From Candidatus Omnitrophota bacterium (GTDB lineage Bacteria; Omnitrophota; Gorgyraeia; Gorgyraeales; Gorgyraeaceae), in NCBI GenBank assembly GCA_041648935.1, contig JBAZOA010000001.1, positions 2,433 through 66,432 on the forward strand: DNA of 64,000 bases. The letters are read 5' to 3'. The position numbers were made by a program, and so were the translations under genes. Positions 4,127 through 26,555 of the stretch are shown here, piece after piece (the first letter of the stretch is position 1; each line of letters begins with the position of its first letter). The notes below the pieces were generated by a model that was not told the origin of the DNA, made no database searches, and was given only the letters and a program-made list of their open reading frames with translations.

Positions 4127-4131
4127 ATATT

Positions 4132-6144: not shown

Positions 6145-6190
6145 ATCGATAAAATCTTATCAATAACCAACTATAAATGCAAGAAAAATC

Positions 6191-6231
6191 CCTTAGTTGA
6201 CACTCAAGCAATACTCCTTTTGTCAACTTGC
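6191..6231. repeat. E1 palindromic intergenic element, copy A (cttagttgaca-N18-tgtcaacttgc)
   Basis: Shares the AGTTGACA...AAAGGAGTATTGCT...TGTCAACT core with copies at 9595, 25297 and 56101. It reads in opposite orientation on the plus strand and lies 47 nt upstream of the PilZ-protein ATG. Confidence 0.8.
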
Positions 6232-6237
6232 GGGATA

Positions 6238-6645
6238 TTACGGGAGGCGGGGCTTCTTGATTTTCTTTTTAACCTGCCTTGGCTTGATAAAAAAATAGGA
6301 GCACAGAAAACCCAACAATATCACCGCGGAAAATAAAATGTGCGTCTCGCGCCTCATCGGGGAGGCCGCCGTGACAGGAGATGCGCGGTCCGGCGTGACT
6401 TCTTTCCCCGCCGGCGGAACGGGCGCCTCGCCGGAGAACCCATCGTCTTCATCGCCGGCGGCGCTCACGAACGGCCGCAATTTCCTCTTATTTTCCTCTC
6501 TCGCGGAATTTACCTCGTTTGACACGTTGATCTTTTCGATATCCGCAGAGGATTCCTCGGCAACCCATTCCCCGTCCCCCTCGTAAGGCCTCAGGGCGTA
6601 AAGAGAAGGAACGGCTGTCAAGATAATCAGGAAGACAGCCGACAT
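6238..6645 (-). CDS. Hypothetical secreted protein with C-terminal TM anchor and lysine-rich tail
   Basis: ORF with signal-peptide-like start MSAVFLIILTAVPSLYA; start moved to the internal Met to avoid overlap. Acidic, low-complexity middle region. C-terminal hydrophobic helix followed by KKKIKKPRLP. No recognisable domain. Confidence 0.3.
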   Translation of the reverse strand: MSAVFLIILTAVPSLYALRPYEGDGEWVAEESSADIEKINVSNEVNSAREENKRKLRPFVSAAGDEDDGFSGEAPVPPAGKEVTPDRASPVTAASPMRRETHILFSAVILLGFLCSYFFIKPRQVKKKIKKPRLP

Positions 6646-6650
6646 GGTCC

Positions 6651-9176: not shown

Positions 9177-9578
9177 CTATTCGCCGGAAACAACGTTCAG
9201 GAGGGATTCCTCCGCGAAGATCCGCGCCTTTGCCCTGACGGCTATCGCGATGCTGTCGCTGGGCCTGGAGTCCACTTCTATCACGCGGCCGTCCATCTCC
9301 ATGACCAGTTTGGCGAAATACGTGTTCTGCTCTAATTTCGTGATGACTACCTTCGTGATCTTGGCGCCCAATTGCCTGATGGCGTCATGCAATAAATCAT
9401 GGGTCATGGGCCTGGGGGGATTAATCCCGTTTATCTTCATCTTTATGGCCGTAACCTCCATTATGCCTATCACGATGGAAAGCATGCGGCTGCCGGCTTT
9501 TTCCTTCAGGACAATCACCTGCTCCCCCCTGTTTTCGTCTATCCGTATCTTTTTTAACTCCATCTCTATCATGGACAT
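9177..9578 (-). CDS. Bifunctional nuclease (DUF151/BFN) family protein
   Basis: 133 aa; the conserved core PRPMTHDLLHDAIRQLGAKITKVVI matches the BFN (DNase/RNase) family. Confidence 0.65.
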   Translation of the reverse strand: MSMIEMELKKIRIDENRGEQVIVLKEKAGSRMLSIVIGIMEVTAIKMKINGINPPRPMTHDLLHDAIRQLGAKITKVVITKLEQNTYFAKLVMEMDGRVIEVDSRPSDSIAIAVRAKARIFAEESLLNVVSGE

Positions 9579-9594
9579 GTCAAATCTCCTGCCC

Positions 9595-9634
9595 CTTAGT
9601 TGACAAAAGGAGTATTACTCATGTGTCAACTTAG
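9595..9634. repeat. E1 palindromic intergenic element, copy B (cttagttgaca-aaaggagtattactcatg-tgtcaacttag)
   Basis: 11-bp inverted arms with one T:T mismatch; 18-nt spacer contains AAAGGAG. Ends 2 nt before the stop of the 4Fe-4S gene and lies 16 nt upstream of the BFN nuclease ATG. Confidence 0.85.
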
Positions 9635-9636
9635 GA

Positions 9637-10236
9637 TTATGTGTTCAGGGTTATCTCTCTCCTGCATTTGGGACAAAGTATCTTGATCCTGTCCTGGCGG
9701 GTCAATTCTTTCGGCGCCTCGATATTCAGATACGCCAATCTCAGCTCTTTCAACGCGGATAGATACGCCGTGGGGCTTGAATACGCCAGGGCCCCTAATT
9801 TTTTCGCGACCCACACAAGGTGGTCTTTCGCCCCAACCACGCAATTACAACCCTCGCACAAAACAAGCTCTTTTTCAATCGATTCAACGGCGTCTTCCCT
9901 GTTAAATACGGCGAGGTCGAATTTATTCGATAATTTTATGCCTTCCTGCGTTATGCAGGCCGCCTGGCATTGTCCGCAGAATATACATCTGTCATAGCGC
10001 AGATCGAGCCTGCGGACAGGAGGATTTGAATCGATGGAATCCTTTACCTCTATGCACCCCGCGGGGCATACCTCGCTGCAGGCCTTGCAGCCGACGCATC
10101 CGTCCTTAAAATATTCCGGCTTGCCCCTGAAACGCTTGGCGGGCACGTGAGGCTTGGAAGGAAAACTTGTGGTATAGGGGCCTTTTATCAGCGCCCTGAC
10201 CGCCTCAGCCAGTTCTCTCAATTTCGGATATCTCAT
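9637..10236 (-). CDS. 4Fe-4S dicluster ferredoxin-type subunit of membrane-bound hydrogenase (NuoI/EchF/MbhN-like)
   Basis: CVGCKACSEVCPAGC and CIFCGQCQAAC motifs, plus extra Cys pairs (CEGCNC, CPKC). Start moved to MRYPKLREL, which overlaps the mrpG stop by ATGA. The long upstream ORF extension is low-complexity. Confidence 0.7.
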   Translation of the reverse strand: MRYPKLRELAEAVRALIKGPYTTSFPSKPHVPAKRFRGKPEYFKDGCVGCKACSEVCPAGCIEVKDSIDSNPPVRRLDLRYDRCIFCGQCQAACITQEGIKLSNKFDLAVFNREDAVESIEKELVLCEGCNCVVGAKDHLVWVAKKLGALAYSSPTAYLSALKELRLAYLNIEAPKELTRQDRIKILCPKCRREITLNT

Positions 10237-10526
10237 GACCGACCCTCTTTCAAACCTGACTTGCGGACCGCCCTGGCGAGCGCGTGGCTGGCCACCGGGG
10301 CGGTAAAAACTAAAAATAACGCCGTCACTATCGCCTTCACGCCCGCGGTGGAAAAACCTTTTAAAATAAAAGTGCCGAATAGAATAAGGCACGTCCCGAA
10401 TGTGACGCATTTGATCGCGGCCTGTATCCTGCTGTAAAAATCCGGGAAACGCGCGATACCGATACATCCTATGATATTAAAACCCAATCCAATGACGATA
10501 AAAGCCGTCCCTATCATCTCACTCAT
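10233..10526 (-). CDS. mrpG: Mrp/Mnh antiporter subunit G-like
   Basis: 97 aa, 3 TM helices, ARFPDFYSRIQAAIKCVTFG is the PhaG/MnhG signature. Confidence 0.75.
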   Translation of the reverse strand: MSEMIGTAFIVIGLGFNIIGCIGIARFPDFYSRIQAAIKCVTFGTCLILFGTFILKGFSTAGVKAIVTALFLVFTAPVASHALARAVRKSGLKEGRS

Positions 10527-10875
10527 CGAAACCTTTCCCTTCCAGATATTTCGCCAGGGCCAGCGCGCCTATGAAACTCTGAAGCGCCCACGCTATGGCG
10601 ATGTCCAGATACCAATCCCTTCCCGTGGGTATGCTGAGTATGGCGCAAAAACCCACTATCAGGATCCCCAGGGTCTCGATAGCCGCCGCCCTGTCGCCGG
10701 CGGCCGGGCCCGCTATGACCCTGAAGAGGCACATGGCGAAACTGAGCATGAGTATGAAAAAGCATCTCGCCAGAAAAGGCGACTGCCACGCCAATAAAGA
10801 CGGTATCGGATAGATCAGGACAAATAACATGATAACGCCGATAAACAAAAAACCTACCATCCAGCGCGCGTTCAT
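10519..10875 (-). CDS. mrpF: Mrp/Mnh antiporter subunit F-like
   Basis: 118 aa membrane protein with the GDRAAAIETLGILIV motif of MnhF/PhaF. Confidence 0.7.
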   Translation of the reverse strand: MNARWMVGFLFIGVIMLFVLIYPIPSLLAWQSPFLARCFFILMLSFAMCLFRVIAGPAAGDRAAAIETLGILIVGFCAILSIPTGRDWYLDIAIAWALQSFIGALALAKYLEGKGFDE

Positions 10876-11357
10876 TCGAATACCCTCTTTATTATGTTTT
10901 CTATTTTCCCGATCGCGGCGGCCGCGCCCCCCGACCCGATATCAAGACAATGCACGTGCATGACCCCGTTCTCGGCGTCCAGGTCCACAAAAAACACGCC
11001 CGGCATCAGAGTGATCGAATTCGCCAGAAAGGTGATCGCGGTGTCTGACCTTAGAACCGTCTTCACCCTGATCATGCCGGGATTAACGCGCGGCCGCGTG
11101 TCCAGCACCCTTAACGCCATGTCAACGTTCGCCTTCAGAAATTCCCAACTAAGCGCGGCCGCGTAAACCAAAAACCAGAAATATCTTTTTATCTGCCTGA
11201 AATTCTGAGGCCTTCTTATAAACAGATAGCTTGTCAGGCCCGTGACCACGGCGCTGACTATCACGCCGGCTATCACGTGCTGGGTATCGATGGGCCATGA
11301 TAAAAGCGCCCAGATCATGAAATAAATTATGAATAATATTATCTTGTTTAATATCAT
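10872..11357 (-). CDS. mrpE: Mrp/Mnh antiporter subunit E-like
   Basis: 161 aa; SITLMPGVFFVDLD matches the MnhE SITLTPGT motif. Confidence 0.75.
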   Translation of the reverse strand: MILNKIILFIIYFMIWALLSWPIDTQHVIAGVIVSAVVTGLTSYLFIRRPQNFRQIKRYFWFLVYAAALSWEFLKANVDMALRVLDTRPRVNPGMIRVKTVLRSDTAITFLANSITLMPGVFFVDLDAENGVMHVHCLDIGSGGAAAAIGKIENIIKRVFE

Positions 11358-12862
11358 CTCAATACCGCCTTCATCACTATGTTAGCGTAGCTGGTGCCTT
11401 TCAGTAAAACGCCTGAGGCGGTCTCGATAAAAAACCTGAAGGGGGGCAGAAGCATCAGGCCTCCCGCCGCGCACATGACCGCCAGACACACCATGGAAAT
11501 CTTCATCGTGAAAGACGCGTCTTTTACGCCCCTCATCCTGTCTTTTATCTCCCCCAGGAAAGCGAGCTTCCTCGCCTTCATCAGCGCGGACAAGGTGAAC
11601 ACGCTTCCTATTATCGCGCAGAGCGCGTAACCGAAATGCCCTGACTGGACACAGGCCGCGATTATGATAAGCTTGCTGAAAAATCCGCTGAAAGGGGGTA
11701 TGCCCGAGATTGACATGGACGCGATGAGATTCGTCTTTGAGGTAAGCGGCATCAGTTTATCCAATCCCCCCGCCTCTTTCAAGTCCCTCGTACCCGTCGA
11801 ATAATCCATCGCTCCCGCGTTCAAGAAAAGCAGGGACTTCATGACAGAGTGATTGAACAAATGGAAAAGCCCGCCGAACACCCCCAAAGGCGTGCCCAGG
11901 CTGATACCTAATATTATATATCCTATCTGGCTGATAGACGAATAAGCCAGCAGCCTCTTGAAATCCGACTGCCTCAAAGCGAGCATGCCGGCGATTATGA
12001 TAGAGATGACGCCGAAAAACATCAGGGCCTTTAAATATCCCTGGCCGGCGCCTATCACGTTAAATAAAATCCTGGTCAGGCTGTAAATCCCCAGGGTCTT
12101 TATCAAAACCCCGGAAAGCATCGCCGATATGGAGGCCGGGGCCGAGGAATGCGCGTCAGGGAGCCACGCGTGAAACGGGATCAGGGCCGCCTTTAAACTG
12201 AAACCTGCCAGAAACAGGACACCGGCAAACGGCACTACCCAGACGCTGTGCCTGTAACTCAGCACCCTGGCCATGTCCGCCATGTTCAAGGTTGACGTGA
12301 AACTGTAAAGGAGCGCTATGCCCATGAATATGAAACTCGACGCGACCGAACCCATGACGGCGTATTTAAAAGACGCCTCCAGCTCTTCCTCTCCCGTGCC
12401 GAAGGCCACCAGGGCGTAACTCGCCACTGAGGCCACCTCCAGGAACACGAAAAGATTGAACATGTCGCCTGTCATGGCCACGCCGTTCATGCCGCACACC
12501 ATCAGAGAAAATAGGATGAAAAATTTCGGCTTGTCCGTGTATTTTTCCATGTAACCGACAGAATACACGGCGACGAAAAACGCCACGAGATTAACTACCA
12601 CCAGCATCAGGCCGCTGAACCCGTCCAGCACCATGCATATGCCGAAAGGCGGGGCCCACCCGCCCAGCTTGTAAACCAATATCTTGTCCGGCGCGGACTC
12701 AAGCAGGATTCTCGCGTATACGGAAAGGCCAAGCATGAGTCCCGAGCTCACGACCGTCATCACTTCGGCGAACCGCCTCATGTATCTGCCGAACAGGGAA
12801 TTAAGGAACGCGGCGGCAAGGGGCACTATCACGAATAAAGGTATCATATTCAGGGCTTTCAT
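11354..12862 (-). CDS. mrpD: Mrp subunit D / NuoN-like proton-translocating membrane subunit (complex I subunit 2/4/5 family)
   Basis: 502 aa, ~14 TM helices, conserved antiporter-module motifs (HAWLPDAH). Confidence 0.8.
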   Translation of the reverse strand: MKALNMIPLFVIVPLAAAFLNSLFGRYMRRFAEVMTVVSSGLMLGLSVYARILLESAPDKILVYKLGGWAPPFGICMVLDGFSGLMLVVVNLVAFFVAVYSVGYMEKYTDKPKFFILFSLMVCGMNGVAMTGDMFNLFVFLEVASVASYALVAFGTGEEELEASFKYAVMGSVASSFIFMGIALLYSFTSTLNMADMARVLSYRHSVWVVPFAGVLFLAGFSLKAALIPFHAWLPDAHSSAPASISAMLSGVLIKTLGIYSLTRILFNVIGAGQGYLKALMFFGVISIIIAGMLALRQSDFKRLLAYSSISQIGYIILGISLGTPLGVFGGLFHLFNHSVMKSLLFLNAGAMDYSTGTRDLKEAGGLDKLMPLTSKTNLIASMSISGIPPFSGFFSKLIIIAACVQSGHFGYALCAIIGSVFTLSALMKARKLAFLGEIKDRMRGVKDASFTMKISMVCLAVMCAAGGLMLLPPFRFFIETASGVLLKGTSYANIVMKAVLR

Positions 12863-12865
12863 TTC

Positions 12866-13204
12866 TTATCCTTTAAGCCTCCGTATCTTGGTGATATCCA
12901 GGGTGCCGTATTTTTCGTACAGCCTGATGCTGATGGCGATCAAAAGCGCCATTACCGCGAGACCTATGACGATAGAAGTCATGACCAGCGCCTGCGGGAT
13001 TGGGTCAACCATATTGACTATGCCCTGATCATGGGCGTCTATGGGCGCCCTTCCGCGGAACTTGTATCCCAACAATACAAAAAACAAGTTGACCGAATAA
13101 CTCATTATCGCGATGCCCATGATTATCTTGACGATATTGCGCTTGCGCAAGACACCGTAAAGGCCGATAGAAAACAATATAAAGCATAAAAAATAAAGGG
13201 TCAT
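12866..13204 (-). CDS. mrpC: Mrp subunit C / NuoK-like
   Basis: 112 aa, 3 TM helices, typical NuoK/MnhC pattern. Confidence 0.8.
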   Translation of the reverse strand: MTLYFLCFILFSIGLYGVLRKRNIVKIIMGIAIMSYSVNLFFVLLGYKFRGRAPIDAHDQGIVNMVDPIPQALVMTSIVIGLAVMALLIAISIRLYEKYGTLDITKIRRLKG

Positions 13205-13205
13205 G

Positions 13206-13652
13206 TTATTTCCTCGACCTTTCCAAAATCACCAGGGCTAGAAAAATGGCGAACAGGCCGACGCCCACCTTCAGCCCTATGGATATATTGCTCAGGGGTA
13301 TGGTGCCGGCGCTGAACAGGTTGAACGCCTCGCCCTTTGTCATCACGTTCATGAAAAACGTGCCCCCGAAAAACCCCAGGAGCGCCACCGCCAGAAACAT
13401 GACCGCGCCCACGGTCTCCAGTTTAGAGGCGACATTCTCCGAGATCCTCGATAACCTTGTTTCCTTGCCAAAGGCGATCAATAGATTAACAAACGCGAGC
13501 GCTATGATCACCCCTCCCGCGAAACCGCCTCCCGGGGCAAGATGCCCGTGCAGGATGATGTGCAGCCCGAAGATCAGGATGATGCCGGCTGTCAGGCGGC
13601 TCGCCGTCTTCACCACCAAAGACATATCTTCCCTTGAATAGTTACCCGTCAT
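13206..13652 (-). CDS. mrpB: Mrp subunit B (MnhB domain) protein
   Basis: GHLAPGGGFAGGVI is the MnhB signature. Confidence 0.7.
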   Translation of the reverse strand: MTGNYSREDMSLVVKTASRLTAGIILIFGLHIILHGHLAPGGGFAGGVIIALAFVNLLIAFGKETRLSRISENVASKLETVGAVMFLAVALLGFFGGTFFMNVMTKGEAFNLFSAGTIPLSNISIGLKVGVGLFAIFLALVILERSRK

Positions 13653-14179
13653 GCCGCGTCTCCATGATTCTTCTTGCCTGGTTTTCGCAAAACCGCCATT
13701 ATGCCTATTATGGCGGTGAATAAGACCGCGACCTCTCCCAGCGTGTCATACGCCCGGAAGTCCAGCACTGTCGCGCTCACCAGATTAACGGCTCCCGTTT
13801 TATTGACCCCTTCCTCTATGTATTTCCTGACGACCTCCATCAGGGGATTGCCGAAAGACGGCAATTCTCTCAGGGCCAGCCAGCTGAACGAAAGAAATAC
13901 GCAAAGGAAGATAACCGTCGTGAAAGTATTGAAGACCCAGCGGCCCTCTACCACCAGGGGCAGGTCCTTTCTTATGGTCGCCCTGATCAATATTATCAGG
14001 CATAATAATTCCACCACGAGCTGGGTTATGGCCAGATCTGGCGCCTTCAGCATCAAAAAAGCGAGACAAAGGGCGAACCCCACGGCGCCGAGAGAGATGA
14101 CGCTCGAAAACAGGTCTTTCACCTCCATCGCCGTTATCGCGGCGAATATCATGAATAATAAAAGTATGTGCAGTTCCAT
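13649..14179 (-). CDS. MrpA C-terminal-like (DUF4040/MbhD-like) membrane subunit
   Basis: LKAPDLAITQLVVE motif of DUF4040; 176 aa, 5 TM helices; lies between mrpA and mrpB. Confidence 0.55.
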   Translation of the reverse strand: MELHILLLFMIFAAITAMEVKDLFSSVISLGAVGFALCLAFLMLKAPDLAITQLVVELLCLIILIRATIRKDLPLVVEGRWVFNTFTTVIFLCVFLSFSWLALRELPSFGNPLMEVVRKYIEEGVNKTGAVNLVSATVLDFRAYDTLGEVAVLFTAIIGIMAVLRKPGKKNHGDAA

Positions 14180-14180
14180 G

Positions 14181-15959
14181 TCATTTCACCAAAAATAAAA
14201 ACAGCCCCATCATGCCCAATAACGCCCACACCAGATAAGTCGGCAAGACCCCGTTATGCAGATATTGGAAAAATCTCCCGAAACCAAGCGTGATATTTTT
14301 TCCCTGTTCATAGATATCGAAAAATCCGGTTTCCGCCTTTTTATAGATACCCCGCAGCATGCCGTGTTCTTTCACGGTGTTATAAAATTCCGTCCCGGAA
14401 AGCCTCATCTCATCCGATATCTCCTCTCCCCCTATGTAAGGAGGACTTTCCCTGACGCCTTTGAAATTCCCCATAAAACATATCAATACCCCCGCCCCCA
14501 GGCCCGTCAACAAAAACAAGGCGGCTTTTATGGACGGCCAAGCGCCTATGAATGCCAAACCGCCCGGCAACACCGGGATTATCAGATACCTTAACGGGAC
14601 GATATAAGCGAACACGCCGAACACAATGCATAAAACCGCCAGAATCACGACTGGAAGCCACATCTGCCACGGCACCTCACGAGCCAAACCGTGTTTTCTC
14701 GGGCCTAAAAAGACGCCGTTTATCAATTTTACGGACGCCGCCACCGCCAATCCGCTCCCAAACATCGCCGCTACCAGACAAAATATCCATAACACGCCGC
14801 CCTCGCTCCCTTTTTCCACCAGGGCCTGATAGATCATCCACTTTGAGAAGAATCCGTTGAAAGGAGGTATGCCGGACATGGCGAAAAACGCCGTGAGCGC
14901 CGTCATAAACGACAACGGCATCATCTTCGCGAACCCGCCCAGACGGTCCAGGTCGGAATCATTGGCCCTGTACTCGACGTTTCCACAGGACAAGAACAGG
15001 CACGATTTATAGATAGCGTGGTTGACCATGTGGAACAGCCCGCCCGCCAGGCCGATCACGCTGCCCGTACCTATCCCGAGCACTATATACCCTACCTGGC
15101 TTATCGCGCAAAAACTCAGAAGTTTCTTGAAATCATTCTGGACCAGGGCCGCCATGGCCCCGGCCATTATAGTTATCACCCCTATTATCATCAACAGCGC
15201 GCGGGAAAAATTATCAAGTACGAACACGTTCATGACCAATCTCGCCAATAAATATATCCCCAGCAGTTTATCAAGGGAAGCGGGGAGAAACGCTGTCACC
15301 GTAATCGGCGCCTCTTTGGCCGTATCGGGTATCCATGAATGAAAAGGCATGGCCCCGGCTTTGGCGAACGCTCCAATCGCGATGAATAGGAACGCCCAGA
15401 AAGAAAGCGGGTTATCTATCTCCACCCTTATGCCGCTTAAGCTCAAAGAACCCGTGATGCGCCATAATAGGGCGAAACCCAGTATCATGAAACCGTCTGA
15501 ACCGGCCACTATTATCAGGGTCTTCTTGCTTATAGCCGCTGAGCGCGCGCCCGAGACATTGATGAGAGTATAAAGCAAAAGGCCTAAAAACCCCCAGGCG
15601 GCGATCAGTAAAATAACATTATTCGAGACCGAGGCCAATAAAGAAATCCCTATGGTCCATATCACGCAGGCGTAATAAGACGATACGTCTTTATACGACG
15701 ACATGGACCGCGTTGAATACAGGGTGACGAGCGCCCCGAAAAAGCCTATGCCCAGCGCTATGAATCTGGAGAGGGAATCCACGTATAAGAAATCAGCTTC
15801 TATGGGCGCCTTCAAGAAGATCCTGATTGACGCCGCCAATAGGTACAGAGAGGTAACCAAGCTAAAGCCCTCTGTCATCTTCCTGAAGGTCTTTGGAAGG
15901 ACGAGGATAAACAGCCCCGCGATTATCGAAACCAGTATTGGCTGTAACAATACGCCCAT
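14181..15959 (-). CDS. mrpA: Mrp subunit A / NuoL-like proton-translocating membrane subunit
   Basis: 592 aa polytopic protein of the complex I subunit 5 family (HSWIPD motif). Ends 1 nt before the hydrogenase large-subunit stop. Confidence 0.8.
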   Translation of the reverse strand: MGVLLQPILVSIIAGLFILVLPKTFRKMTEGFSLVTSLYLLAASIRIFLKAPIEADFLYVDSLSRFIALGIGFFGALVTLYSTRSMSSYKDVSSYYACVIWTIGISLLASVSNNVILLIAAWGFLGLLLYTLINVSGARSAAISKKTLIIVAGSDGFMILGFALLWRITGSLSLSGIRVEIDNPLSFWAFLFIAIGAFAKAGAMPFHSWIPDTAKEAPITVTAFLPASLDKLLGIYLLARLVMNVFVLDNFSRALLMIIGVITIMAGAMAALVQNDFKKLLSFCAISQVGYIVLGIGTGSVIGLAGGLFHMVNHAIYKSCLFLSCGNVEYRANDSDLDRLGGFAKMMPLSFMTALTAFFAMSGIPPFNGFFSKWMIYQALVEKGSEGGVLWIFCLVAAMFGSGLAVAASVKLINGVFLGPRKHGLAREVPWQMWLPVVILAVLCIVFGVFAYIVPLRYLIIPVLPGGLAFIGAWPSIKAALFLLTGLGAGVLICFMGNFKGVRESPPYIGGEEISDEMRLSGTEFYNTVKEHGMLRGIYKKAETGFFDIYEQGKNITLGFGRFFQYLHNGVLPTYLVWALLGMMGLFLFLVK

Positions 15960-15960
15960 T

Positions 15961-17136
15961 CTATGTCTTTCTCATCCTCTCTGTCTTTTCCTGCGAAAGC
16001 CTGACCAGGTCCTGTCCGGTCATGACCTTTTTACCCGTCCCGCGATCGACCACGGTGACGCGCTCGGTGCAGCAATAACATGGATCGACGGCCGCCAGGA
16101 TTATGGTGGCGTCCGATATGGTCTGGCCCACCACGGCCTTTTTATTGGACGCGATGTTCATGAAGCTCGGCGCCCGTATCTTGTGCCTTGAGGGCGTGTT
16201 TGTCCCGTCTGACATTATGTAATGCGCCACTTCGCCTCTCGGCGCCTCGTGCCTGCCTATGCCCTCGCCCACAGGCATGTCTTTTATGGCCGCGTCTATC
16301 GGGCCGTCCGGCATCTTATCGAGACATTGCGTTATTATGCTCACCGATTCATAAAGTTCCAATACCCTGACAACGGTCTTACTGAACACGTCGCCTTTTT
16401 CCTGCGTCACCACGTTCCACTTCACCTTATCATAGGCCGCGTAGGGATCGTCTTTTCTCACGTCGATCGCGACGCCTGAGGCCCTCGCCGTGGGACCCAC
16501 GACGCAATATGTCTTCACGTCGTCTTTCGTGAGCACCCCGACGCCCTCGGTCCTGGCGCGTATCACGGGGTCGTCCATTATGGCCCCCTTGAACATGTCA
16601 AACTTGGAAAGCAGGCCCTGGAGCGTCTTTTTTATCCACGGGAAATCTTCTTTGGACATGTCCCTTCTGACCCCGCCCGGCTTCATCATGGCGTAATTCT
16701 GCCTGTTACCCGCCACGCATTCGAATATATCCAGCACGGATTCCCTGTATTTCCACGCCCACATCCAAACCGTATTATACCCCAGAAAATGCCCCGCCAG
16801 CCCGAGCCAAAGGAGATGACTGTGTATCCTCTCGAGCTCTCCTATCACGGTCCTTATGTAAAGCGCCCTTTCAGGCGGGTCCTTGGCCAGGAGGTCGTCA
16901 ATGGCGTTCACGTAAGCGAATGGATGCGAGGTCGAGCATATCCCGCAGATCCTTTCCACTAAAAACGTCGCCTGGTCATAACTCTTTGATTCGGATATCT
17001 TCTCGATCAGGCGGTGGTTATAACCGATATCTATGTCTATGTCGACCACTGTCTCGCCTTCGACGTGCAACTTGAAAAATTCAGGCTCTTCCTGCAGCGG
17101 ATGGTACGGTCCTATGGGTATGATCTTGCGCGCCAT
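15961..17136 (-). CDS. Group 4 [NiFe]-hydrogenase large (catalytic) subunit (NuoD/EchE/MbhL-like)
   Basis: N-terminal NiFe motif RICGICSTSH (RxCGxCxxxH) and C-terminal DPCYCCTER (DPCxxC). Confidence 0.85.
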   Translation of the reverse strand: MARKIIPIGPYHPLQEEPEFFKLHVEGETVVDIDIDIGYNHRLIEKISESKSYDQATFLVERICGICSTSHPFAYVNAIDDLLAKDPPERALYIRTVIGELERIHSHLLWLGLAGHFLGYNTVWMWAWKYRESVLDIFECVAGNRQNYAMMKPGGVRRDMSKEDFPWIKKTLQGLLSKFDMFKGAIMDDPVIRARTEGVGVLTKDDVKTYCVVGPTARASGVAIDVRKDDPYAAYDKVKWNVVTQEKGDVFSKTVVRVLELYESVSIITQCLDKMPDGPIDAAIKDMPVGEGIGRHEAPRGEVAHYIMSDGTNTPSRHKIRAPSFMNIASNKKAVVGQTISDATIILAAVDPCYCCTERVTVVDRGTGKKVMTGQDLVRLSQEKTERMRKT

Positions 17137-17571
17137 TTATCGATCTCTCCTTAAAGGATAATTGCCTTTCGGCCAGTCCTCTTTTAAAAGCAGGTGCCTC
17201 AGGTTCGGATGGCCCTTAAAATTAACTCCGAGCATCTCGTGTATCTCCATCTCTATCCACTCCGCGCCTTTCATGACGCCTGTCAACGTTTCCGTCTCGG
17301 GCTCCGGCTTAGCCAAAATAACCCGGAGAGAGACAATAAGCCCTGTCTCGTCTATCGAAAAGTGATAGAGTATCTCTATCGCCTTTCTGGTGTCCACTCC
17401 TGACGCGGTAATGAATCTGGCGCCCGCGTCATTATAAAGATACTTGACCAGCGGGACCAGCGCTGGATTGGAAACGGTAAAATAAATCCTGTTCTTCGAC
17501 CTGTCCTGGAAATCCAGGATGTCTTTTCCCGCGCGCACCTTTATGTTCTCTATTATCTCCTGTCTTTTCAT
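17137..17571 (-). CDS. NuoC/EchD/MbhK-like hydrogenase subunit (30 kDa subunit family)
   Basis: 144 aa NuoC-family fold, immediately upstream of the large subunit. Confidence 0.7.
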   Translation of the reverse strand: MKRQEIIENIKVRAGKDILDFQDRSKNRIYFTVSNPALVPLVKYLYNDAGARFITASGVDTRKAIEILYHFSIDETGLIVSLRVILAKPEPETETLTGVMKGAEWIEMEIHEMLGVNFKGHPNLRHLLLKEDWPKGNYPLRRDR

Positions 17572-17595
17572 TTTAACACCCTTGTCATTGCGAAC

Positions 17596-17635
17596 AGCAA
17601 CAGTAGAGGAGGTTTAAACCTCCTCTACTGTTGCT
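17596..17635. repeat. E2 perfect palindrome, copy 1 (AGCAACAGTAGAGGAGG-TTTAAA-CCTCCTCTACTGTTGCT)
   Basis: 40-bp perfect palindrome. Overlaps the NuoB-like stop codon by 2 nt and lies 24 nt upstream of the NuoC-like ATG. Related to the copy at 20289. Confidence 0.9.
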
Positions 17636-18062
17636 ACTTTTTGCTTGTCAATTTTTCTATGAGTTTCGTGATGCCCGCTATCATGGCCTCCGGCTTAGGC
17701 GGGCAGCCCGGTATGTAGACATCAACCGGCAGGACAGAATCGACCGGATCCGGGCAATTCGGCCCGTTTCTGAAAATACCCTGTCCGCACGCGCACGTGC
17801 CTATGGCGATAACGACGCACGGCTTCGGGGCCTGCGCGTAAATCTTTTTTATCAACGGCAGCGCCTTCAGGTTTAAAGAACCCGTCACCAATATGGCGTC
17901 CGCGTGCCTTATGCTTCCGACCAGCGTGATGCCGAACCTCTCCGCGTCGAACCTCGGGGTCAGCATATCCAATATCTCTATGTCGCAGTTATTACAGCTT
18001 CCCGTCGACATGTGATAAACCCAGATCGACTTGGTCAATGCCTTTAGCCTGAATCCCATCAT
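17634..18062 (-). CDS. [NiFe]-hydrogenase small subunit (NuoB/EchC/MbhJ-like)
   Basis: Fe-S ligand motifs (GSCNNC, GTCA) and the GCPPKPEAMIAGI signature. Confidence 0.85.
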   Translation of the reverse strand: MMGFRLKALTKSIWVYHMSTGSCNNCDIEILDMLTPRFDAERFGITLVGSIRHADAILVTGSLNLKALPLIKKIYAQAPKPCVVIAIGTCACGQGIFRNGPNCPDPVDSVLPVDVYIPGCPPKPEAMIAGITKLIEKLTSKK

Positions 18063-18964
18063 AACCCCGCTATCGCCAATAAAACCGCCAAGGTCGCGAG
18101 CATGGTCATCTTCCCCCAGAAAAACCTCATTGCCTGGTCTATCTTCACCCTTGGGTTAGTGTTTTTTATGAGAATCGCCGCGACCACCAGTATCAGATAT
18201 TTCCACAGGCCGAAACCGCCCAAAAACAAAGTAACCAACAATACGGGCAGGGCCACCATCATCATGGCCCTCGTGAGCTTGAATATAGCCAATAAGATCC
18301 CTGAATATTCTATAAAAACCCCTCCCATTATCTCTGTCTCCGCCTCAGCCATGTCAAAAGGCACGAGCCCGAGCTTTGCCTGGACGCAGAATACGGCTAC
18401 TAAAACAGCCAGGATCCCTGAGGCGCTGAACACGAACGGTCCGTTCGCGGCCTGGTACGCGGCTATCTGGCCAAGACGAAGCAGGCCCCCTGTCTTTATT
18501 ATCGGCACGCTGAGCGAAAGGATAAAGGGAAGTTCGTACGCCAGCATTAGTTTTATCTCTCTTGACGCGCCGAGCGACGCCAGGGGATTCGCGCTCGCCG
18601 AAGCCCCCAACATCACCGCCAAAGACGGCAATGTCAAAAGATACACTATGACTATCAGGTCCCCGGTGAAACCGATCGAGCTGAAATCCATGTTCGCGAG
18701 CCAGATAAAAGTGGATGACAACATTACGGCGCTGAGGCCCAAAAGCGGCGAAAGGAAAAATAACGGCCTTGAAGCGCCCTGAGGCACTGTTATCTCCTTC
18801 ATGCTCAATTTTACCAAATCCAAGAAAGACTGGTACCACGGCGGCCCAACCCTCCATTGCACCCTGGCGCTCACCTTGCGGTCCACCCACGTAACCAAAA
18901 GACCGAAGATGGCCGTGAATAAAAAGCCCGGGAATATTAAAAAATTGAATAAATATCTTATCAT
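18059..18964 (-). CDS. NuoH/EchB/MbhM-like integral membrane hydrogenase subunit
   Basis: 8 TM helices. Start moved to MIRYLFNFLIFPGF, which overlaps the upstream stop by ATGA. The 57-codon Arg-rich upstream extension is rejected. Confidence 0.75.
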   Translation of the reverse strand: MIRYLFNFLIFPGFLFTAIFGLLVTWVDRKVSARVQWRVGPPWYQSFLDLVKLSMKEITVPQGASRPLFFLSPLLGLSAVMLSSTFIWLANMDFSSIGFTGDLIVIVYLLTLPSLAVMLGASASANPLASLGASREIKLMLAYELPFILSLSVPIIKTGGLLRLGQIAAYQAANGPFVFSASGILAVLVAVFCVQAKLGLVPFDMAEAETEIMGGVFIEYSGILLAIFKLTRAMMMVALPVLLVTLFLGGFGLWKYLILVVAAILIKNTNPRVKIDQAMRFFWGKMTMLATLAVLLAIAGL

Positions 18965-19443
18965 GGGTGATACTTTTTCCACGGCATGGCGTGGACCGCT
19001 ATGTGCTTTCCTATCAGATATATATCGTCTTTCTCGGATTCTTCCACATCCATGAACTTCACCGCGTCTTCCACGGAACACGTCTTCACGCAGACAGGAT
19101 CCTCGCTTCCGCTCCTGTCGATGCAGGCGTCGCACTGAGCCACGATATAAGGCACCGTATCAATGGCTATTGTCCCGAAAGGACACGCCATGGAGCAGGA
19201 TTTACAGGACACACAGCGCATGGTATAGCGCTTCACTACCCCGTCCGCCTGTTTTTCCAGAGCCTCCTTTGGACACGAATTGACGCAGGGCGCCTCTTCG
19301 CATTTCCTGCATATGTATAAAAATTCTCCCATCTCCCTCAGGCGCGTAATGCCTGAATTCCCGGGATGATAATAATAACTGCACTCCGCTTTTATGGGCT
19401 CACACTTGTTCAATTTTTCCAAATCGATAAAAAGGCGTTTCAT
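18961..19443 (-). CDS. 4Fe-4S ferredoxin-type electron-transfer subunit (HycB/CooF-like)
   Basis: CRKCEEAPCVNSCP, CVSCKSCSMACPFG, CDACIDRS...CVKTC give four Cys clusters. Confidence 0.7.
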   Translation of the reverse strand: MKRLFIDLEKLNKCEPIKAECSYYYHPGNSGITRLREMGEFLYICRKCEEAPCVNSCPKEALEKQADGVVKRYTMRCVSCKSCSMACPFGTIAIDTVPYIVAQCDACIDRSGSEDPVCVKTCSVEDAVKFMDVEESEKDDIYLIGKHIAVHAMPWKKYHP

Positions 19444-19444
19444 G

Positions 19445-20272
19445 TCAATCCCATATCTCGTGAATGTGGCTTATCCTGTCGTACCTGAATACCGGGCCGT
19501 CCTTGCACGCGTAAAAATTCCCCAGGCGGCAATGGCCACATTTTCCCATACCGCAGCTCATGTTCTTTTCCATCGACAGATAAACCTGGTCCTGCCTGTA
19601 TCCCACGTCCATAAGCTTGAACGTGGCGAACTTCATCATTATGGGCGGCCCGCACACTATCGCCACGCTGTTTTTTAAATCCAGATCCAGCTTGTCCAGC
19701 GTGGTCGTGACCAGGCCGACATTGCCTTTCCAGCTATCATCTTTTCTATCCACTGTTATCCTGAATTTGATCTTCTTTTTGTCCAGGCACTGCCACTTAT
19801 CCAGCATGCAGTCCTTGTATATGATATCTGACGGCGTCCTGGAACCGCAGCAGAACAGGACGCTCTTGTACCTGTCTATGTCGTGCGCCAACGCCAGAAA
19901 AAGCGCCCTCAGAGGCGCGAGCCCGACCCCGCCGCCCACAAGCAGGACGTCCTTGCCCTCGAATTCGGATAACGGATACTCGTTGCCAAAAGGCCCCCTG
20001 AGCCCGACCGCGTCTCCTTTTTTCAGGCCGTGTATCATGCCGGTGATCCTGCCCGCTTTCATTATCGTGACTTCCAGCCTGCTCTTTTCATAAGGGGAGG
20101 ATGAAGGGGTAAAAGGCGCCTCTCCCACGCCGGGCACTGTCATTTCTATGAACTGCCCCGCCTTGAAACCCATCGGCCTCTCAGGCCTCAGACAGAATGT
20201 CTTTATGGTGGGGCTTTCGTCTATTATATCAATTACTTCTGTCTTTACGGGTAAATACGGATTATCTATCAT
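19445..20272 (-). CDS. FAD/NAD(P)-binding oxidoreductase with C-terminal 2Fe-2S (sulfhydrogenase gamma HydG / AsrB-like)
   Basis: FNR-like fold (GQFIEMTVPG, LLVGGGVGLAPL, CGPP) plus C-terminal CGMGKCGHC. Confidence 0.7.
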   Translation of the reverse strand: MIDNPYLPVKTEVIDIIDESPTIKTFCLRPERPMGFKAGQFIEMTVPGVGEAPFTPSSSPYEKSRLEVTIMKAGRITGMIHGLKKGDAVGLRGPFGNEYPLSEFEGKDVLLVGGGVGLAPLRALFLALAHDIDRYKSVLFCCGSRTPSDIIYKDCMLDKWQCLDKKKIKFRITVDRKDDSWKGNVGLVTTTLDKLDLDLKNSVAIVCGPPIMMKFATFKLMDVGYRQDQVYLSMEKNMSCGMGKCGHCRLGNFYACKDGPVFRYDRISHIHEIWD

Positions 20273-20288
20273 CACTTAATCAATCCCT

Positions 20289-20330
20289 CAGCAGCAGTAG
20301 GGGAGGTTTAAACCTCCCCTACTGCTGCTG
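20289..20330. repeat. E2 perfect palindrome, copy 2 (CAGCAGCAGTAGGGGAGG-TTTAAA-CCTCCCCTACTGCTGCTG)
   Basis: 42-bp perfect palindrome, 3 nt after the HydB-like stop and 13-16 nt upstream of the HydG-like start. Differs from copy 1 at positions that are changed symmetrically in both arms. Confidence 0.9.
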
Positions 20331-20333
20331 CTA

Positions 20334-21362
20334 TTACTCAAGCGCTAATTTACTGAGGACTTCCCTTATGTCTATCTTCCCGGGACACGCCTCCACACAC
20401 CTGCCGCAGCCGGTGCACCCGAACCTGGCGATATTATCGGGGAAAAAATTGAATTTCTTGTCAAATCTATTTCTCAGGCGCTGCGCGAGGAGCTTGCGGG
20501 GATTCGCGCCTCCGGCGACCCTCGCGAAAGACATCAAGAGACAGGAATCCCATTGCCTCAACCGCTCAAAACCCTCTTCGCCGTTCTGGTCCTTCAGCAC
20601 GAAACAATGGCAGGCCGGACATATGAAATTGCACGCGCCGCATTCAACACACGTCTTCGCCGTCTCTTCCCACAATTTCGACTCGAATTTTTTCCTGAAT
20701 AAACCCTGCACGGCATCGCTCGGCGGGATATTGCTCTTCTCCACGTGCCTCGAAAGCCTGTCTTTCAGCTGTCTCCTGTTGGATTCTCTTTTTTCGGAAT
20801 AGGGCGCGGCGCTCTGGAATAATTTAAAATATTCCCTTATTATCTTTTCTCCCTTATTGGAACCGGCCTCCGCCACATAACCGCTTTCTATCTCGGAGAT
20901 ATTTATGTCAAAATTATCCGTTGGGTAAGGCATTATGCCTATGGCGAGACAAAAACACGTCTGGCCATGGGTAGTGCAATCGGATGATATGATCAGGCCT
21001 TCTTCTCTCCTGGAGACGTAAAAGGGATCCTTGAACGGTTCCTGCGAATATACATAGTCCATGACCTTGAAGGAAGCGAGATCGCATGCCTTGGCGCCTA
21101 TTATGGCGATGGGCCTTTCAGTCCTGTCGCTGTTCTTTTCCGAAAAATAACCCGCCACCTTTGACCGCGCCGGAAAATAAAAACTCTTCAGGGGTTCGAC
21201 GGCCCTGATCTCCCCCAGCACGGCGCCTTCAAGCCCTTCCTCCCCCATTTTCTTATAAAACCGCTCTTCACCTGACTTGACCGGGACATAAACCCTGTAC
21301 GTCTTGGCCAAAGACATGGCCAATCTGTCCAGGTTCGGCCTATTAATAAAGTATAAATCCAT
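20334..21362 (-). CDS. Fe-S oxidoreductase subunit (sulfhydrogenase beta HydB / AsrA-like)
   Basis: CVECGACNFICPACHC and CTGCGRCVEACP 4Fe-4S motifs plus an N-terminal Cys cluster; pairs with the adjacent HydG-like gene. Confidence 0.65.
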   Translation of the reverse strand: MDLYFINRPNLDRLAMSLAKTYRVYVPVKSGEERFYKKMGEEGLEGAVLGEIRAVEPLKSFYFPARSKVAGYFSEKNSDRTERPIAIIGAKACDLASFKVMDYVYSQEPFKDPFYVSRREEGLIISSDCTTHGQTCFCLAIGIMPYPTDNFDINISEIESGYVAEAGSNKGEKIIREYFKLFQSAAPYSEKRESNRRQLKDRLSRHVEKSNIPPSDAVQGLFRKKFESKLWEETAKTCVECGACNFICPACHCFVLKDQNGEEGFERLRQWDSCLLMSFARVAGGANPRKLLAQRLRNRFDKKFNFFPDNIARFGCTGCGRCVEACPGKIDIREVLSKLALE

Positions 21363-21431
21363 TGGGTTGATCCTTAGAAGACTTCGTGAAATTTATCACA
21401 ATCTTTTGAAAAAAAAATAAATTACCTATAT

Positions 21432-21460
21432 TTTATAATACAAAGACGCTCTCCTGTCAA
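21432..21460 (-). promoter_or_regulatory. Sigma-70-like promoter upstream of the hydB-like/hydrogenase/mrp operon (TTGACA-17-TATAAA)
   Basis: Minus strand reads TTGACAggagagcgtctttgtatTATAAA, 70 nt upstream of the HydB-like ATG, in a 115-nt AT-rich intergenic region. Confidence 0.45.
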
Positions 21461-21477: not shown

Positions 21478-21885
21478 TTAGAAATGCAGCTCCATGGCGC
21501 GAGGCGGACAAGCCTTGATGCACAATTCACAAGCAATGCACTTGTCTTCATAAAACAGGACCTTGCGGGTCACGGGATCCGTTACCAGCGCGGCTGTGGG
21601 GCATATCGGCACGCACGCGCCGCAGTGGGTACATTTCGCCTCGTTTCTCTTGATGTCCTTTGAAAGCGGCTGGACCGTCACGCCGAGAGACCTAGCGTGT
21701 TTTACTGCCTTTTCAAGGTTCGCCTCGTCGCCGGTGAACTCAAGCACCAGGAGCCCTTCCTCTCTGGGCGTCACGTAGGCCTTTAATATATTGAATTCCA
21801 GGTCAAAATCCTTTACCATCCTGTACACTATGGGCTGATCCACAAGCCTGTGGGGAAATTTTAAAACAATTCGCCTTGAAACCAT
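21478..21885 (-). CDS. NIL-domain 4Fe-4S ferredoxin
   Basis: N-terminal NIL-like domain. C-terminal CTHCGACVPICP and CIACELCIKACP. Confidence 0.55.
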   Translation of the reverse strand: MVSRRIVLKFPHRLVDQPIVYRMVKDFDLEFNILKAYVTPREEGLLVLEFTGDEANLEKAVKHARSLGVTVQPLSKDIKRNEAKCTHCGACVPICPTAALVTDPVTRKVLFYEDKCIACELCIKACPPRAMELHF

Positions 21886-21902: not shown

Positions 21903-22634
21903 CTACGCCAACTCTATATTGCCAGCGCTCCCGAAATCACTGCCGATTATCGCCAACGCGCCCTCGACACCTTTAATAGAAACGGCGAATTCTAAAGCCG
22001 CCTTTATGTCTTTTTTATCTTTTATCCTGTTGCAGACGGCGGTCGCCATCGCGTCCGCCAGAGATGTCGACTTGGATATTATAACACAGGCATCGGCTTT
22101 TCCAAAGCTCAAAGAATGACCCACTGTACCGCTGGACGCGCATACCCCCAAAGGTGTCTCCGCGGCTTTTATCTTTATAAAAAGTTTATTGCTCAATGGG
22201 GAATCGCCCGCGAATATCGCTACGATCCTCTCCTTCAGAGATTTTATGAATATGTCCCCGCCGTTTTCTATGATAACCTGTCTGGAACGCGCCAATAGCT
22301 CCCCGCCGACAAATTCAGCGATCGCCCCGGCCACCGCGGCCATTGGTCCGACCCCGGCCAAACCCGACGCCCTGATCATCTCTCTTATGATTTCCGGGGC
22401 GGATAGGTCCTGGCCGACAGGCCCCAGGCTCGCCTGGAATTCAGGTCTTTTTTTTATATACCCCTCTATCTCTCTCCTGTATTTCTTGACGGCGTCCTCC
22501 GCGGCGCGGCTCAGATCCTTTTCAGCGAAAATGAAAAGGTCAGTCTCTTTAACGACAACCTCCTGTCCAGTGAGGTCGCCGGAACCGGACCATTTTCTGT
22601 AAAACCGCTCCTGGAAATCCTTGCGCTTGGCCAT
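21903..22634 (-). CDS. UPF0280/ApbE-superfamily-like protein
   Basis: Gly/Ala-rich core (GLAGVGPMAAVAGAIAEFVGGELL) reminiscent of the UPF0280 family. Start moved to MAKRKDF; the Arg-rich extension is rejected. Confidence 0.35.
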   Translation of the reverse strand: MAKRKDFQERFYRKWSGSGDLTGQEVVVKETDLFIFAEKDLSRAAEDAVKKYRREIEGYIKKRPEFQASLGPVGQDLSAPEIIREMIRASGLAGVGPMAAVAGAIAEFVGGELLARSRQVIIENGGDIFIKSLKERIVAIFAGDSPLSNKLFIKIKAAETPLGVCASSGTVGHSLSFGKADACVIISKSTSLADAMATAVCNRIKDKKDIKAALEFAVSIKGVEGALAIIGSDFGSAGNIELA

Positions 22635-22639
22635 GCCGC

Positions 22640-22984
22640 TTAATCCACCTCTATTGACTCGACGCTGATGCCTGCGCCCCCAATGACTTCCACCGCGGCT
22701 GACTTGCACTCGGGACACCCCTTAACGAACTTACCGGCCAGAAATTCATTGCCGCAATTCTTGCATCTGAACCCCGGCTTGACCTTTTTAAATTTCAATA
22801 TCGCCTTTTCCAAAGACGTCCCAACGGCCCGCTCTTTAAAATGAAACTCAAAATGATCAGCGCTTATCTGCTCCAATTCCCCCAGGAGTATATTAATCCT
22901 AAGGACCCTCGAATAAGGGCCAATCTCCTTGAGCTTTGAATTTACTATGAAAATTATGTTGTCCACAACCCCTGTCTCGTGCAT
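22640..22984 (-). CDS. hypA: Hydrogenase nickel-incorporation protein HypA
   Basis: Starts MHE; two CxxC pairs (CKNCG...CPEC); 114 aa. Confidence 0.8.
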   Translation of the reverse strand: MHETGVVDNIIFIVNSKLKEIGPYSRVLRINILLGELEQISADHFEFHFKERAVGTSLEKAILKFKKVKPGFRCKNCGNEFLAGKFVKGCPECKSAAVEVIGGAGISVESIEVD

Positions 22985-26489: not shown

Positions 26490-26511
26490 TGTTTGTTCGA
26501 GCGGGCACGGT

Positions 26512-26536: not shown

Positions 26537-26555
26537 GAGCGAGAAGAAACACTGA

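Follow-up and report, generated by a model that had tools for sequence, protein, structure and literature searches.

The window analysed here is a stretch of 64,000 nucleotides from a contig of a Candidatus Omnitrophota bacterium (GenBank assembly GCA_041648935.1, contig JBAZOA010000001.1, positions 2,433 to 66,432), and the subject of this analysis is a [NiFe] hydrogenase operon, hun, on its minus strand. At window positions 9637-21362, the list of open reading frames (ORFs) together with Pfam and NCBIfam profiles indicated 16 tightly packed co-directional genes. The genes were labeled by their profile matches and then by matches to PDB sequences (Table 1). The original prediction, which was made from the letters alone, had described a Mrp-coupled group 4 [NiFe] hydrogenase with an NAD(P)H module. 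The 16 genes lie at the coordinates and on the strand that it gave, and its labels agree with the Pfam and NCBIfam assignments. This includes its full MrpA to MrpG module, as Pfam assigns hunH to hunO as parts of MrpA to MrpG. Most neighboring genes overlap by 4-8 nt or abut, and the largest gaps are 58 nt between hunA and hunB and 62 nt between hunE and hunF. Two of the mechanical ORFs are overlong; the true start of hunD is at 18964 (MIRYLF), and that of hunP is at 10236 (MRYPKL).

Table 1. Features of the hun region, in window coordinates.
Feature	Position	Strand	Basis
hunA, Fe-S subunit, sulfhydrogenase beta/AsrA-like, 342 aa	20334..21362	-	Fer4_22, E 1.9e-29
hunB, FAD/NAD(P)-binding [2Fe-2S] flavoprotein, sulfhydrogenase gamma (HydG)/AsrB-like, 276 aa	19445..20275	-	FAD_binding_6 + NAD_binding_1 + DHODB_Fe-S_bind
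hunC, HycB/DmsB-type poly-[4Fe-4S] ferredoxin, 160 aa	18961..19443	-	Fer4_11, E 2.3e-12
hunD, NuoH/HycD/MbhM-like membrane anchor, 301 aa	18059..18964	-	PF00146 (NADHdh), E 8e-61
hunE, NuoB-like hydrogenase small subunit, 142 aa	17634..18062	-	PF01058, E 1.3e-28
hunF, NuoC-like subunit, 144 aa	17137..17571	-	PF00329, E 3.4e-25
hunG, NuoD-like [NiFe] large subunit, 391 aa	15961..17136	-	PF00346 + PF00374
hunH, MrpA/NuoL-like antiporter subunit, 592 aa	14181..15959	-	PF00361, E 1.6e-55; full-length NuoL + MrpA matches
hunI, MbhD + MbhE domains (MrpA C-terminal part), 176 aa	13649..14179	-	PF13244 + PF20501
hunJ, MrpB/MnhB-like, 148 aa	13206..13652	-	PF04039, E 3e-25
hunK, MrpC/NuoK-like, 112 aa	12866..13204	-	PF00420, E 3.8e-28
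hunL, MrpD-like antiporter subunit, 502 aa	11354..12862	-	PF00361, E 1e-68
hunM, MrpE/MnhE-like, 161 aa	10872..11357	-	PF01899, E 1.3e-33
hunN, MrpF-like, 118 aa	10519..10875	-	PF04066, E 2e-16
hunO, MrpG-like, 97 aa	10233..10526	-	PF03334, E 5e-23
hunP, HycF/NuoI-type 2x[4Fe-4S] subunit with C-terminal Cys quartet, 199 aa	9637..10236	-	
Rex-operator-like palindrome TTGTGATAAATTTCACGA, 39 nt upstream of hunA ATG	21384..21401	-	2 mismatches to TTGTGAANNNNTTCACAA
Promoter-like site, TTGACA (21460-21455), 17 nt, TATAAA (21437-21432)	21432..21460	-	read from sequence
NIL-domain 2x[4Fe-4S] ferredoxin, directly upstream of hunA	21478..21885	-	PF09383 + Fer4
ApbE-like ORF	21903-22718	-	PF27030 in L001; no match in Pfam copy searched for window
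hypA	22640-22984	-	Pfam HypA
hypE (mechanical ORF)	22995-24137	-	Pfam AIRS/AIRS_C
hypD	23990-25075	-	Pfam HypD
hypC	25072-25281	-	read from sequence
hypF C-terminal part	25329-26615	-	Pfam HypF_C

The operon is the 16-gene hun operon (hunA to hunP), which encodes the Hun complex, a [NiFe] hydrogenase of HydDB group 4g. It is identified as hun because its gene order and content match HunA to HunP and because the CGIC...CYCC signature is found. The 16 co-directional genes comprise an AsrA-like, an AsrB-like and a CooF(HycB)-like gene, NuoH-, NuoB-, NuoC- and NuoD-like genes, the MrpA to MrpG set, and a NuoI-like gene. HunG carries the signature as RICGICSTSH and DPCYCCTER. The AsrAB-like pair is not accompanied by AsrC, and there is no NIR_SIR or siroheme protein among the long ORFs of the window. 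The group 4g label for HunG is a reported one; it rests on the published labels of Omnitrophota and Hun large subunits.

The 16-subunit Hun complex, encoded by hunA to hunP, was defined, and drawn for Omnitrophica, by Glass et al. 2021 (bioRxiv 10.1101/536078; Environ Microbiol). The carriers in that study were Atribacteria, Omnitrophica, Elusimicrobia, Bacteroidetes, a metagenome-assembled genome (MAG) of Firmicutes and the cultured Kosmotoga. HunAB were reported there to resemble AsrAB, with AsrC missing, and HunG to belong to HydDB group 4g with the signature CGIC...CYCC. Earlier, Matheus Carnevali et al. 2019 had described in Saganbacteria a group 4 hydrogenase with Mrp, cooF, asrA, and asrB, which they called "enigmatic"; the nearest relatives of the Saganbacteria cluster were from Omnitrophica and Zixibacteria. 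Molybdopterin genes in some hun clusters were noted in both studies. Williams et al. 2021 (PMC8542988) reported a "Group 4g, Mrp-linked" hydrogenase in Omnitrophota, treated as a ferredoxin-driven Mbh, and in some Omnitrophota Hun is reported to be the sole hydrogenase. Compared with the published Hun complex, the window shows the same 16 genes in the same order and no structural difference, except that it is without the hycI gene that comes after hunP in close relatives.

The novelty that the original prediction implied is therefore lost: the arrangement was noted in 2019, and the operon was named and drawn for Omnitrophica in 2021, with the electron donor left open or taken as ferredoxin. 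Its remark that no complex with this combination had been characterized holds for the searchable literature. Hun is an already known, named, and uncharacterized family that is listed for this phylum. What is new in this analysis is the homology to sulfhydrogenase I beta and gamma, the HycF-type connector, the synteny across phyla, and the link to Rex. Glass et al. (10.1101/536078) mention neither a link to Rex nor the HycF-type Cys quartet.

The scan of species representatives (185,579 genomes, one per species) gave at least 599 pattern matches, with 595 confirmed relatives. HunG is 100% identical to a protein of an NCBI Candidatus Omnitrophota MAG. At 64-85% identity its homologues number in the hundreds and come from Omnitrophota as well as other phyla, and the best matches in the protein searches are all Hun orthologues. 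All 16 window proteins were mapped on the best 80 loci of the at least 595 relatives. Their MAG labels include Omnitrophota, Endomicrobia/Elusimicrobiota, Planctomycetota, Clostridia, Nitrospirota, Chlamydiota, Auribacterota, and others. As the original prediction had proposed, the same gene order was looked for in related genomes. The order A-B-C-D-E-F-G is retained in every one of these 80 loci that reaches far enough upstream, and the absences are all contig ends. In L001, the hun gene order is identical to that of the window. Median intergenic gaps are 14-31 nt, and median identities are 57% for HunB, 55% for HunD, and 50% for HunP. HunABC is an integral part of the enzyme, because the A-G order is universal, the gaps are short, and HunB is conserved like the core subunits HunD and HunP. 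In L063, L066, L071, and L081, HunA-H and HunP are kept and the small Mrp subunits HunI-O are missing; L078 is also without HunH. The presence of HunABC therefore does not depend on that of the Mrp module.

One local difference concerns hunE and hunF, whose 62-nt spacer is filled by a perfect 18-bp inverted repeat (AGCAACAGTAGAGGAGGT TTAA ACCTCCTCTACTGTTGCT) at window 17596-17635; the repeat contains GGAGG in one arm and occurs once in the window. It is a lineage-specific insertion, as the gap of the relatives is only ~17 nt here. mRNA stability, processing, or translational control are possibilities for its role.

Against PDB sequences, HunG matched MbhL (6cfw_L) with 287 bits, HycE (7z0s_E) with 269 bits, and MbsL (6u8y_L) with 176 bits. 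Cys64, Cys67, Cys353, and Cys356, the Ni/Fe ligands of the L1 and L2 CxxC motifs, are invariant in 82 of 82 orthologues. CYCC is likewise found in all 82, and the longer DPCYCCTER in 81 of them. The intact NiFe cysteine motifs of the original prediction are thus confirmed. Since the Ni/Fe cysteines are invariant, hyp genes adjoin the operon, and hycI adjoins it in relatives, HunG is, as judged from its sequence, a true group 4 [NiFe] hydrogenase large subunit. The original prediction had also offered a sulfur-reducing Mbs-like complex that has kept a true NiFe site; the match to MbsL is weak for this (176 against 287 bits for MbhL). In Mbs and Mbx the NiFe cysteines of the NuoD-like subunit are lost, and in HunG they are intact.

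The gene for a HycI-type maturation endopeptidase lies 3' of hunP in all close relatives that extend past hunP, and in many distant ones. Window 9578-9637 was compared here with L001 17579-18040 and ~30 other loci. A search with the L001 protein found no hycI in the whole 64-kb window. HunG keeps a 32-aa C-terminal extension after DPCYCCTER although hycI is missing from the window.

HunA and HunB are homologous over their full length to two subunits of sulfhydrogenase I of Pyrococcus furiosus. HunA matched the beta subunit (9nez_B) at E 8e-42 over residues 22-332, and HunB matched the gamma subunit (9nez_C) at E 3e-59, followed by NfnS and PyrK. All NCBIfam equivalog cut-offs were missed. HunA scored 181 bits with ShyB, 156 bits with HydB, and 135 bits with AsrA (cut-offs 690, 750, and 323), and HunB scored 197 and 181 bits with the sulfhydrogenase models ShyC/HydG (cut-offs 650 and 600) and 221 bits with AsrB (cut-off 289). 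It is likely that HunA and HunB form a clade of their own, below the cut-offs of AsrA/B, HydB/G, and ShyB/C. The complex is also distinct from the group 3b sulfhydrogenases in its catalytic subunits, which are not of the group 3 alpha/delta type; HunG reaches only 34-42 bits with the HydA/ShyA models of NCBIfam. A Planctomycetales MAG (L030, 410-4958) has a complete 3b-type operon directly upstream of hun, composed of genes for a HydB-like protein, a HydG-like protein, a small subunit, a large subunit, and a HycI-like protease. Because both beta/gamma pairs lie side by side in this locus, HunAB are paralogues of the 3b module and not borrowed subunits.

P. furiosus sulfhydrogenase I is an NADPH-dependent enzyme, and its gamma subunit, NfnS, and PyrK act with pyridine nucleotide at their flavin. 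HunA has 15 invariant cysteines across orthologues. HunB shows the architecture of the FNR/PyrK type, with a FAD barrel, a GGxGxxP motif, and a C-terminal Cys4 [2Fe-2S] site, and an NAD(P)H site is predicted. Among 72 HunB sequences, conservation of GEAPFTPSS, GGGVGLAP, and CGPP reaches at least 80-95%, and none of the four 2Fe-2S cysteines varies. HunB is kept in every locus with its FAD and nucleotide motifs, and its closest solved matches are pyridine-nucleotide subunits; NAD(P)(H) is thus the most likely redox partner predicted for HunB.

The same pair brings up sulfur or sulfite chemistry, in which Hun would be a Mbs-like sulfane reductase or, via HunAB, an Asr-like sulfite reductase. This is very improbable. 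HunA and HunB do score on the AsrA and AsrB models (135 and 221 bits), and sulfhydrogenase I reduces S0 in vitro, but both scores miss the cut-offs (323 and 289 bits). The long ORFs of the 64-kb window also include no siroheme AsrC. The invariant NiFe cysteines, the adjoining hyp genes, and a match to MbsL that is much weaker than those to MbhL and HycE also argue against it.

The iron-sulfur subunits HunC and HunP point to formate hydrogenlyase (FHL). HunC matched HycB-type proteins, including 7z0s_B at E 1.3e-9. It has 14 conserved cysteines, 12 of which are invariant, and Cys14 and Cys122 are present in 92% and 97% of orthologues, respectively. The best PDB match of HunP is HycF (7z0s_F, E 3e-20). 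Its 8 + 4 cysteines are invariant across orthologues, and Cys127, Cys130, Cys188, and Cys191 align with HycF Cys117, Cys120, Cys155, and Cys158. In the FHL structure (PDB 7z0s), this Cys quartet of HycF binds a metal in the C-terminal extension that touches HycB. The peripheral arm is built like that of formate hydrogenlyase, because HunP and HunC match HycF and HycB, including the Cys quartet.

FHL and the group 4a-4b enzymes receive electrons from formate dehydrogenase or CO dehydrogenase. The long minus-strand ORFs of the 64 kb and its one non-shadow plus-strand ORF were searched for asrC, formate dehydrogenase, CO dehydrogenase, and molybdopterin enzymes, and none of these turned up. The original prediction had named the HydBG/AsrAB-like pair as the sole candidate partner in the operon. 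An FHL-like complex, with HunB as a side branch and with a molybdopterin formate dehydrogenase from another locus docked on HunA and HunC, is improbable. It would suit the HycB- and HycF-like HunC and HunP and the molybdopterin genes published for some hun clusters. A FdhA-like gene is found upstream of hun in L017, L018, and L021, but these are only three of the 80 loci, and the long ORFs of the window include no molybdopterin oxidoreductase. In these three loci, which are from Clostridia MAGs, a FdhA-like gene, a second HunA-like gene, mobA, fdhD, and rex precede hunA (573-5720 in L017); this arrangement may be a formate-linked Hun variant. A 3.8-kb insertion between hunB and hunC in L025 was considered as the published molybdopterin gene and rejected; of its three ORFs, one is pilin-like and two match nothing in Pfam.

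The Rex-operator-like palindrome in the window sits between the -10 box and the hunA start codon. It is the only match with two or fewer mismatches in the 64 kb to the Rex consensus TTGTGAANNNNTTCACAA quoted in PMC6391272. Of 66 loci, 21 have such a box at 20-95 nt upstream of hunA, and a 22nd (L039) has it at 218 nt; perfect or 1-mismatch boxes occur in relatives. The expected number is 0.009 per region, and the boxes are ~130-fold above background: there are 31 matches in 1.35 Mb, 22 of which are hunA boxes. In 11 loci, including L017, L018, and L021, a rex gene (CoA_binding + Put_DNA-bind_N) is directly upstream of hunA. Rex is a repressor that senses NADH/NAD+. The Rex boxes would tie hun expression to the pyridine-nucleotide pool and favor a reductant-disposing, H2-evolving role.

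The promoter-like region described by the original prediction is readable as TTGACA and TATAAA separated by 17 nt; a consensus promoter scanner missed it because position 6 of the -10 box is A. That it is the single promoter cannot be shown, since same-strand genes lie upstream and no terminator-like site was found between them and hunA. The Rfam scan of the window gave no matches.

Taken together, Hun is read here as an NAD(P)H-fed, ion-coupled group 4 [NiFe] hydrogenase, with a probability of roughly 0.55. The NAD(P)H coupling of the original prediction is plausible in view of the homology of HunA and HunB to 9nez, the conserved motifs, and the association with Rex; it is unproven. The membrane arm consists of the NuoH-like anchor HunD and the complete MrpA-G set HunH-O, with two antiporter-like subunits as in the Mrp-linked group 4b enzymes. 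HunG, HunE, and HunF, with the HycF-like HunP and the HycB-like HunC, make up a hydrogenase and connector arm of the FHL type. HunA and HunB, the homologues of the sulfhydrogenase I beta/gamma diaphorase, are placed at the tip, where FHL carries formate dehydrogenase. NAD(P)H would reduce the FAD of HunB. Electrons would then pass from the [2Fe-2S] cluster of HunB to the clusters of HunA, to those of HunC, to the two HunP clusters, and to the proximal cluster of HunE, and 2H+ would be reduced to H2 at the [NiFe] site of HunG. Turnover would be coupled via HunD and the Mrp module to the movement of H+ or Na+. Rex would repress the operon and release it when NADH/NAD+ rises, as fits a sink for reducing equivalents.

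Several points weigh against this NAD(P)H-fed enzyme. The first is energetic. The potential of NADH is about -320 mV under standard conditions and about -280 mV in cells, that of NADPH about -370 mV in cells, and that of H2 -414 mV at 1 bar and about -300 mV at 10 Pa. Electron transfer from NADH to H2 is thus uphill or neutral, ceasing to be uphill only at very low H2, and with NADH as its driving donor the enzyme could not pump. For the direction of ion flow, the inference is drawn from standard potentials. The ion gradient would most likely drive H2 release from NADH, as in Ech or complex I running in reverse. Pumping may be possible with NADPH at low H2, or backwards from H2 to NAD(P)+, at roughly one ion per H2. 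The HunB sequence does not discriminate between NADH and NADPH; its G-S-R-T stretch resembles both the NADPH-specific sulfhydrogenase I gamma and the NADH-binding NfnS. Rex control is not informative about the donor, as a ferredoxin-dependent NiFe hydrogenase of Caldicellulosiruptor is likewise under Rex repression (PMC6391272). Moreover, the box in the window has two mismatches, and there is no rex gene in the 64-kb window. No biochemical or structural work on any Hun complex, and nothing usable on the NiFe hydrogenase of Kosmotoga, was found in the literature searched, and the only published model, which is a proposal, has ferredoxin as the donor to HunABC (Glass et al., 10.1101/536078). The HydDB label of group 4g, "ferredoxin-coupled (putative)", agrees with that model. 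Finally, the gene next upstream of hunA encodes a NIL-domain 2x[4Fe-4S] ferredoxin, which may be a dedicated donor to Hun or may be unrelated. This gene and the ApbE-like ORF lie between hypA and hunA, and the pair is kept only in the closest relatives.

One alternative is the published model, a ferredoxin-driven Mbh-like enzyme. Ferredoxin would donate to HunABC or to HunP, HunAB would be an Fe-S relay, and the enzyme would pump H+ or Na+ while evolving H2. It is possible, at well under even odds. Besides Glass et al. (10.1101/536078) and the HydDB label, Williams et al. (PMC8542988) follow the same reading. HunG is closest to the ferredoxin-dependent MbhL, and electron transfer from ferredoxin to H2 is exergonic enough for ion pumping by established thermodynamics. 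The upstream ferredoxin gene and the Rex control of a ferredoxin-dependent enzyme also suit this model, but the NIL-domain ferredoxin is restricted to the nearest relatives. Mbh needs neither HycB-like nor flavoprotein subunits, and a relay-only role leaves the strict retention of HunB with its FAD/NAD(P) motifs unexplained. The closest solved matches of HunB act with pyridine nucleotides. Within the NAD(P)H-fed scheme, ferredoxin could additionally enter at HunC or HunP.

The potentials also allow an uptake enzyme. H2 would be oxidized at HunG and NAD(P)+ reduced at HunB, the drop of ~75-95 mV would pump ions, and NAD(P)H would be supplied in hydrogenotrophs or acetogens. By standard potentials, reduction of NAD(P)+ with H2 is exergonic when H2 is moderate, sulfhydrogenase I of P. 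furiosus physiologically runs in the uptake direction, and the structural matches of HunA and HunB serve this direction equally. Candidatus Gorgyraea, an Omnitrophota genus with group 4g, also has the Wood-Ljungdahl pathway (PMC8542988). Nevertheless, an uptake role is unlikely: release of Rex at high NADH suits a consumer of NADH and not a producer, and the Omnitrophota carriers are described as fermenters that require an outlet for reductant (PMC8542988). A more specific form of the NAD(P)H-fed enzyme stands at about even odds. In this form, Hun would be a reversible NAD(P)H:H+ oxidoreductase coupled to an ion gradient and controlled by Rex, similar to complex I, with protons replacing quinone and a sulfhydrogenase-type FAD module replacing NuoEFG.

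In E. coli FHL-1 (FdhF-HycBCDEFG, group 4a; 7z0s), HycE(G), HycD, HycF, and HycB correspond to HunG/E/F/D/P/C, and HunP has the HycB-contacting C-terminal Cys quartet of HycF. In contrast to FHL-1, Hun is without FdhF, with HunAB at the input position, and has a full Mrp set instead of the single HycC. P. furiosus Mbh (group 4d; 6cfw) provides the best PDB match of HunG and shares the Mrp-derived membrane subunits MbhA-I. It has one antiporter-like subunit, a short MbhN, and no HycB-like or flavoprotein subunits, and ferredoxin docks directly. Compared with its 14 subunits MbhA-N, Hun has the extra HunA, HunB, and HunC, a second antiporter-like subunit, and a ferredoxin of the HycF type rather than the MbhN type. 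In P. furiosus sulfhydrogenase I (group 3b; 9nez/9nf0), it is the NADPH/FAD/Fe-S module that is homologous to HunA and HunB; its alpha and delta subunits are cytoplasmic, whereas the catalytic subunits of Hun are group 4 and membrane-bound. The group 4b enzymes of Thermococcus onnurineus have a group 4 hydrogenase, a complete Mrp module, and a HycB/CooF-type connector in common with Hun, according to family knowledge and HydDB; their input is formate dehydrogenase or CO dehydrogenase instead of a flavoprotein pair. T. onnurineus Fdh3 was dropped as an analogy, as there is an NfnI-modelled NAD(P) subunit and no HydBG pair in it. Complex I (NuoA-N) has homologous Q-module and membrane subunits, and the NAD(P)H-fed reading would give Hun the same logic of pyridine nucleotide and ion coupling. 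The difference is that complex I uses NuoEFG (FMN) and quinone, and Hun would use a PyrK/HydG-type FAD protein for NADH input and H+ at the NiFe site.

The hyp genes upstream of the hydrogenase are in the same order in L001. At window 25329-27658, HypF is a 428-aa ORF with the C-terminal domains only, preceded by a 343-aa ORF without a Pfam match; the same split is seen in L001. Type IV pilus/type II secretion genes lie on both sides of the hydrogenase region (137-8156 and 28650-35496). They include type II secretion system E and F genes, a PilZ protein, PilX-like and pilin-like ORFs, two secretins, and a PilM-PilN fusion. A secreted-nuclease-like SNase gene is at 3302-4126 and a bifunctional-nuclease gene at 9177-9578. 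Two large neighboring ORFs, of 2038 aa (42533-48649, no Pfam match at 1e-5) and 1036 aa (37762-40872, only a lamin-tail domain), are probably giant surface proteins. A Bat/MoxR-type "aerotolerance" cluster at 51718-59709 contains a MoxR AAA ATPase, DUF58, two VWA/BatA-like proteins, TPR proteins, and BatD.

Most of the at least 595 relatives belong to uncultured anaerobes that are dominant in sediments and aquifers, among them Omnitrophota, Atribacteria, and Elusimicrobiota. In Omnitrophota whose sole hydrogenase is reported to be Hun, its electron donor decides redox balance and energy conservation. With ferredoxin as the donor, Hun would amount to an elaborate Mbh of mainly evolutionary interest. 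With NAD(P)H as the donor, it would directly connect the pyridine-nucleotide pool with H2 and an ion gradient, as the first membrane-bound [NiFe] hydrogenase to do so. It would also be an answer, reached independently in evolution, to the task for which complex I uses NuoEFG. In at least seven phyla, fermenters and syntrophs would then release H2 from NAD(P)H, spending ion-motive force or, at very low H2, gaining it. This would be a chemiosmotic alternative to the flavin-based electron-confurcating hydrogenases.

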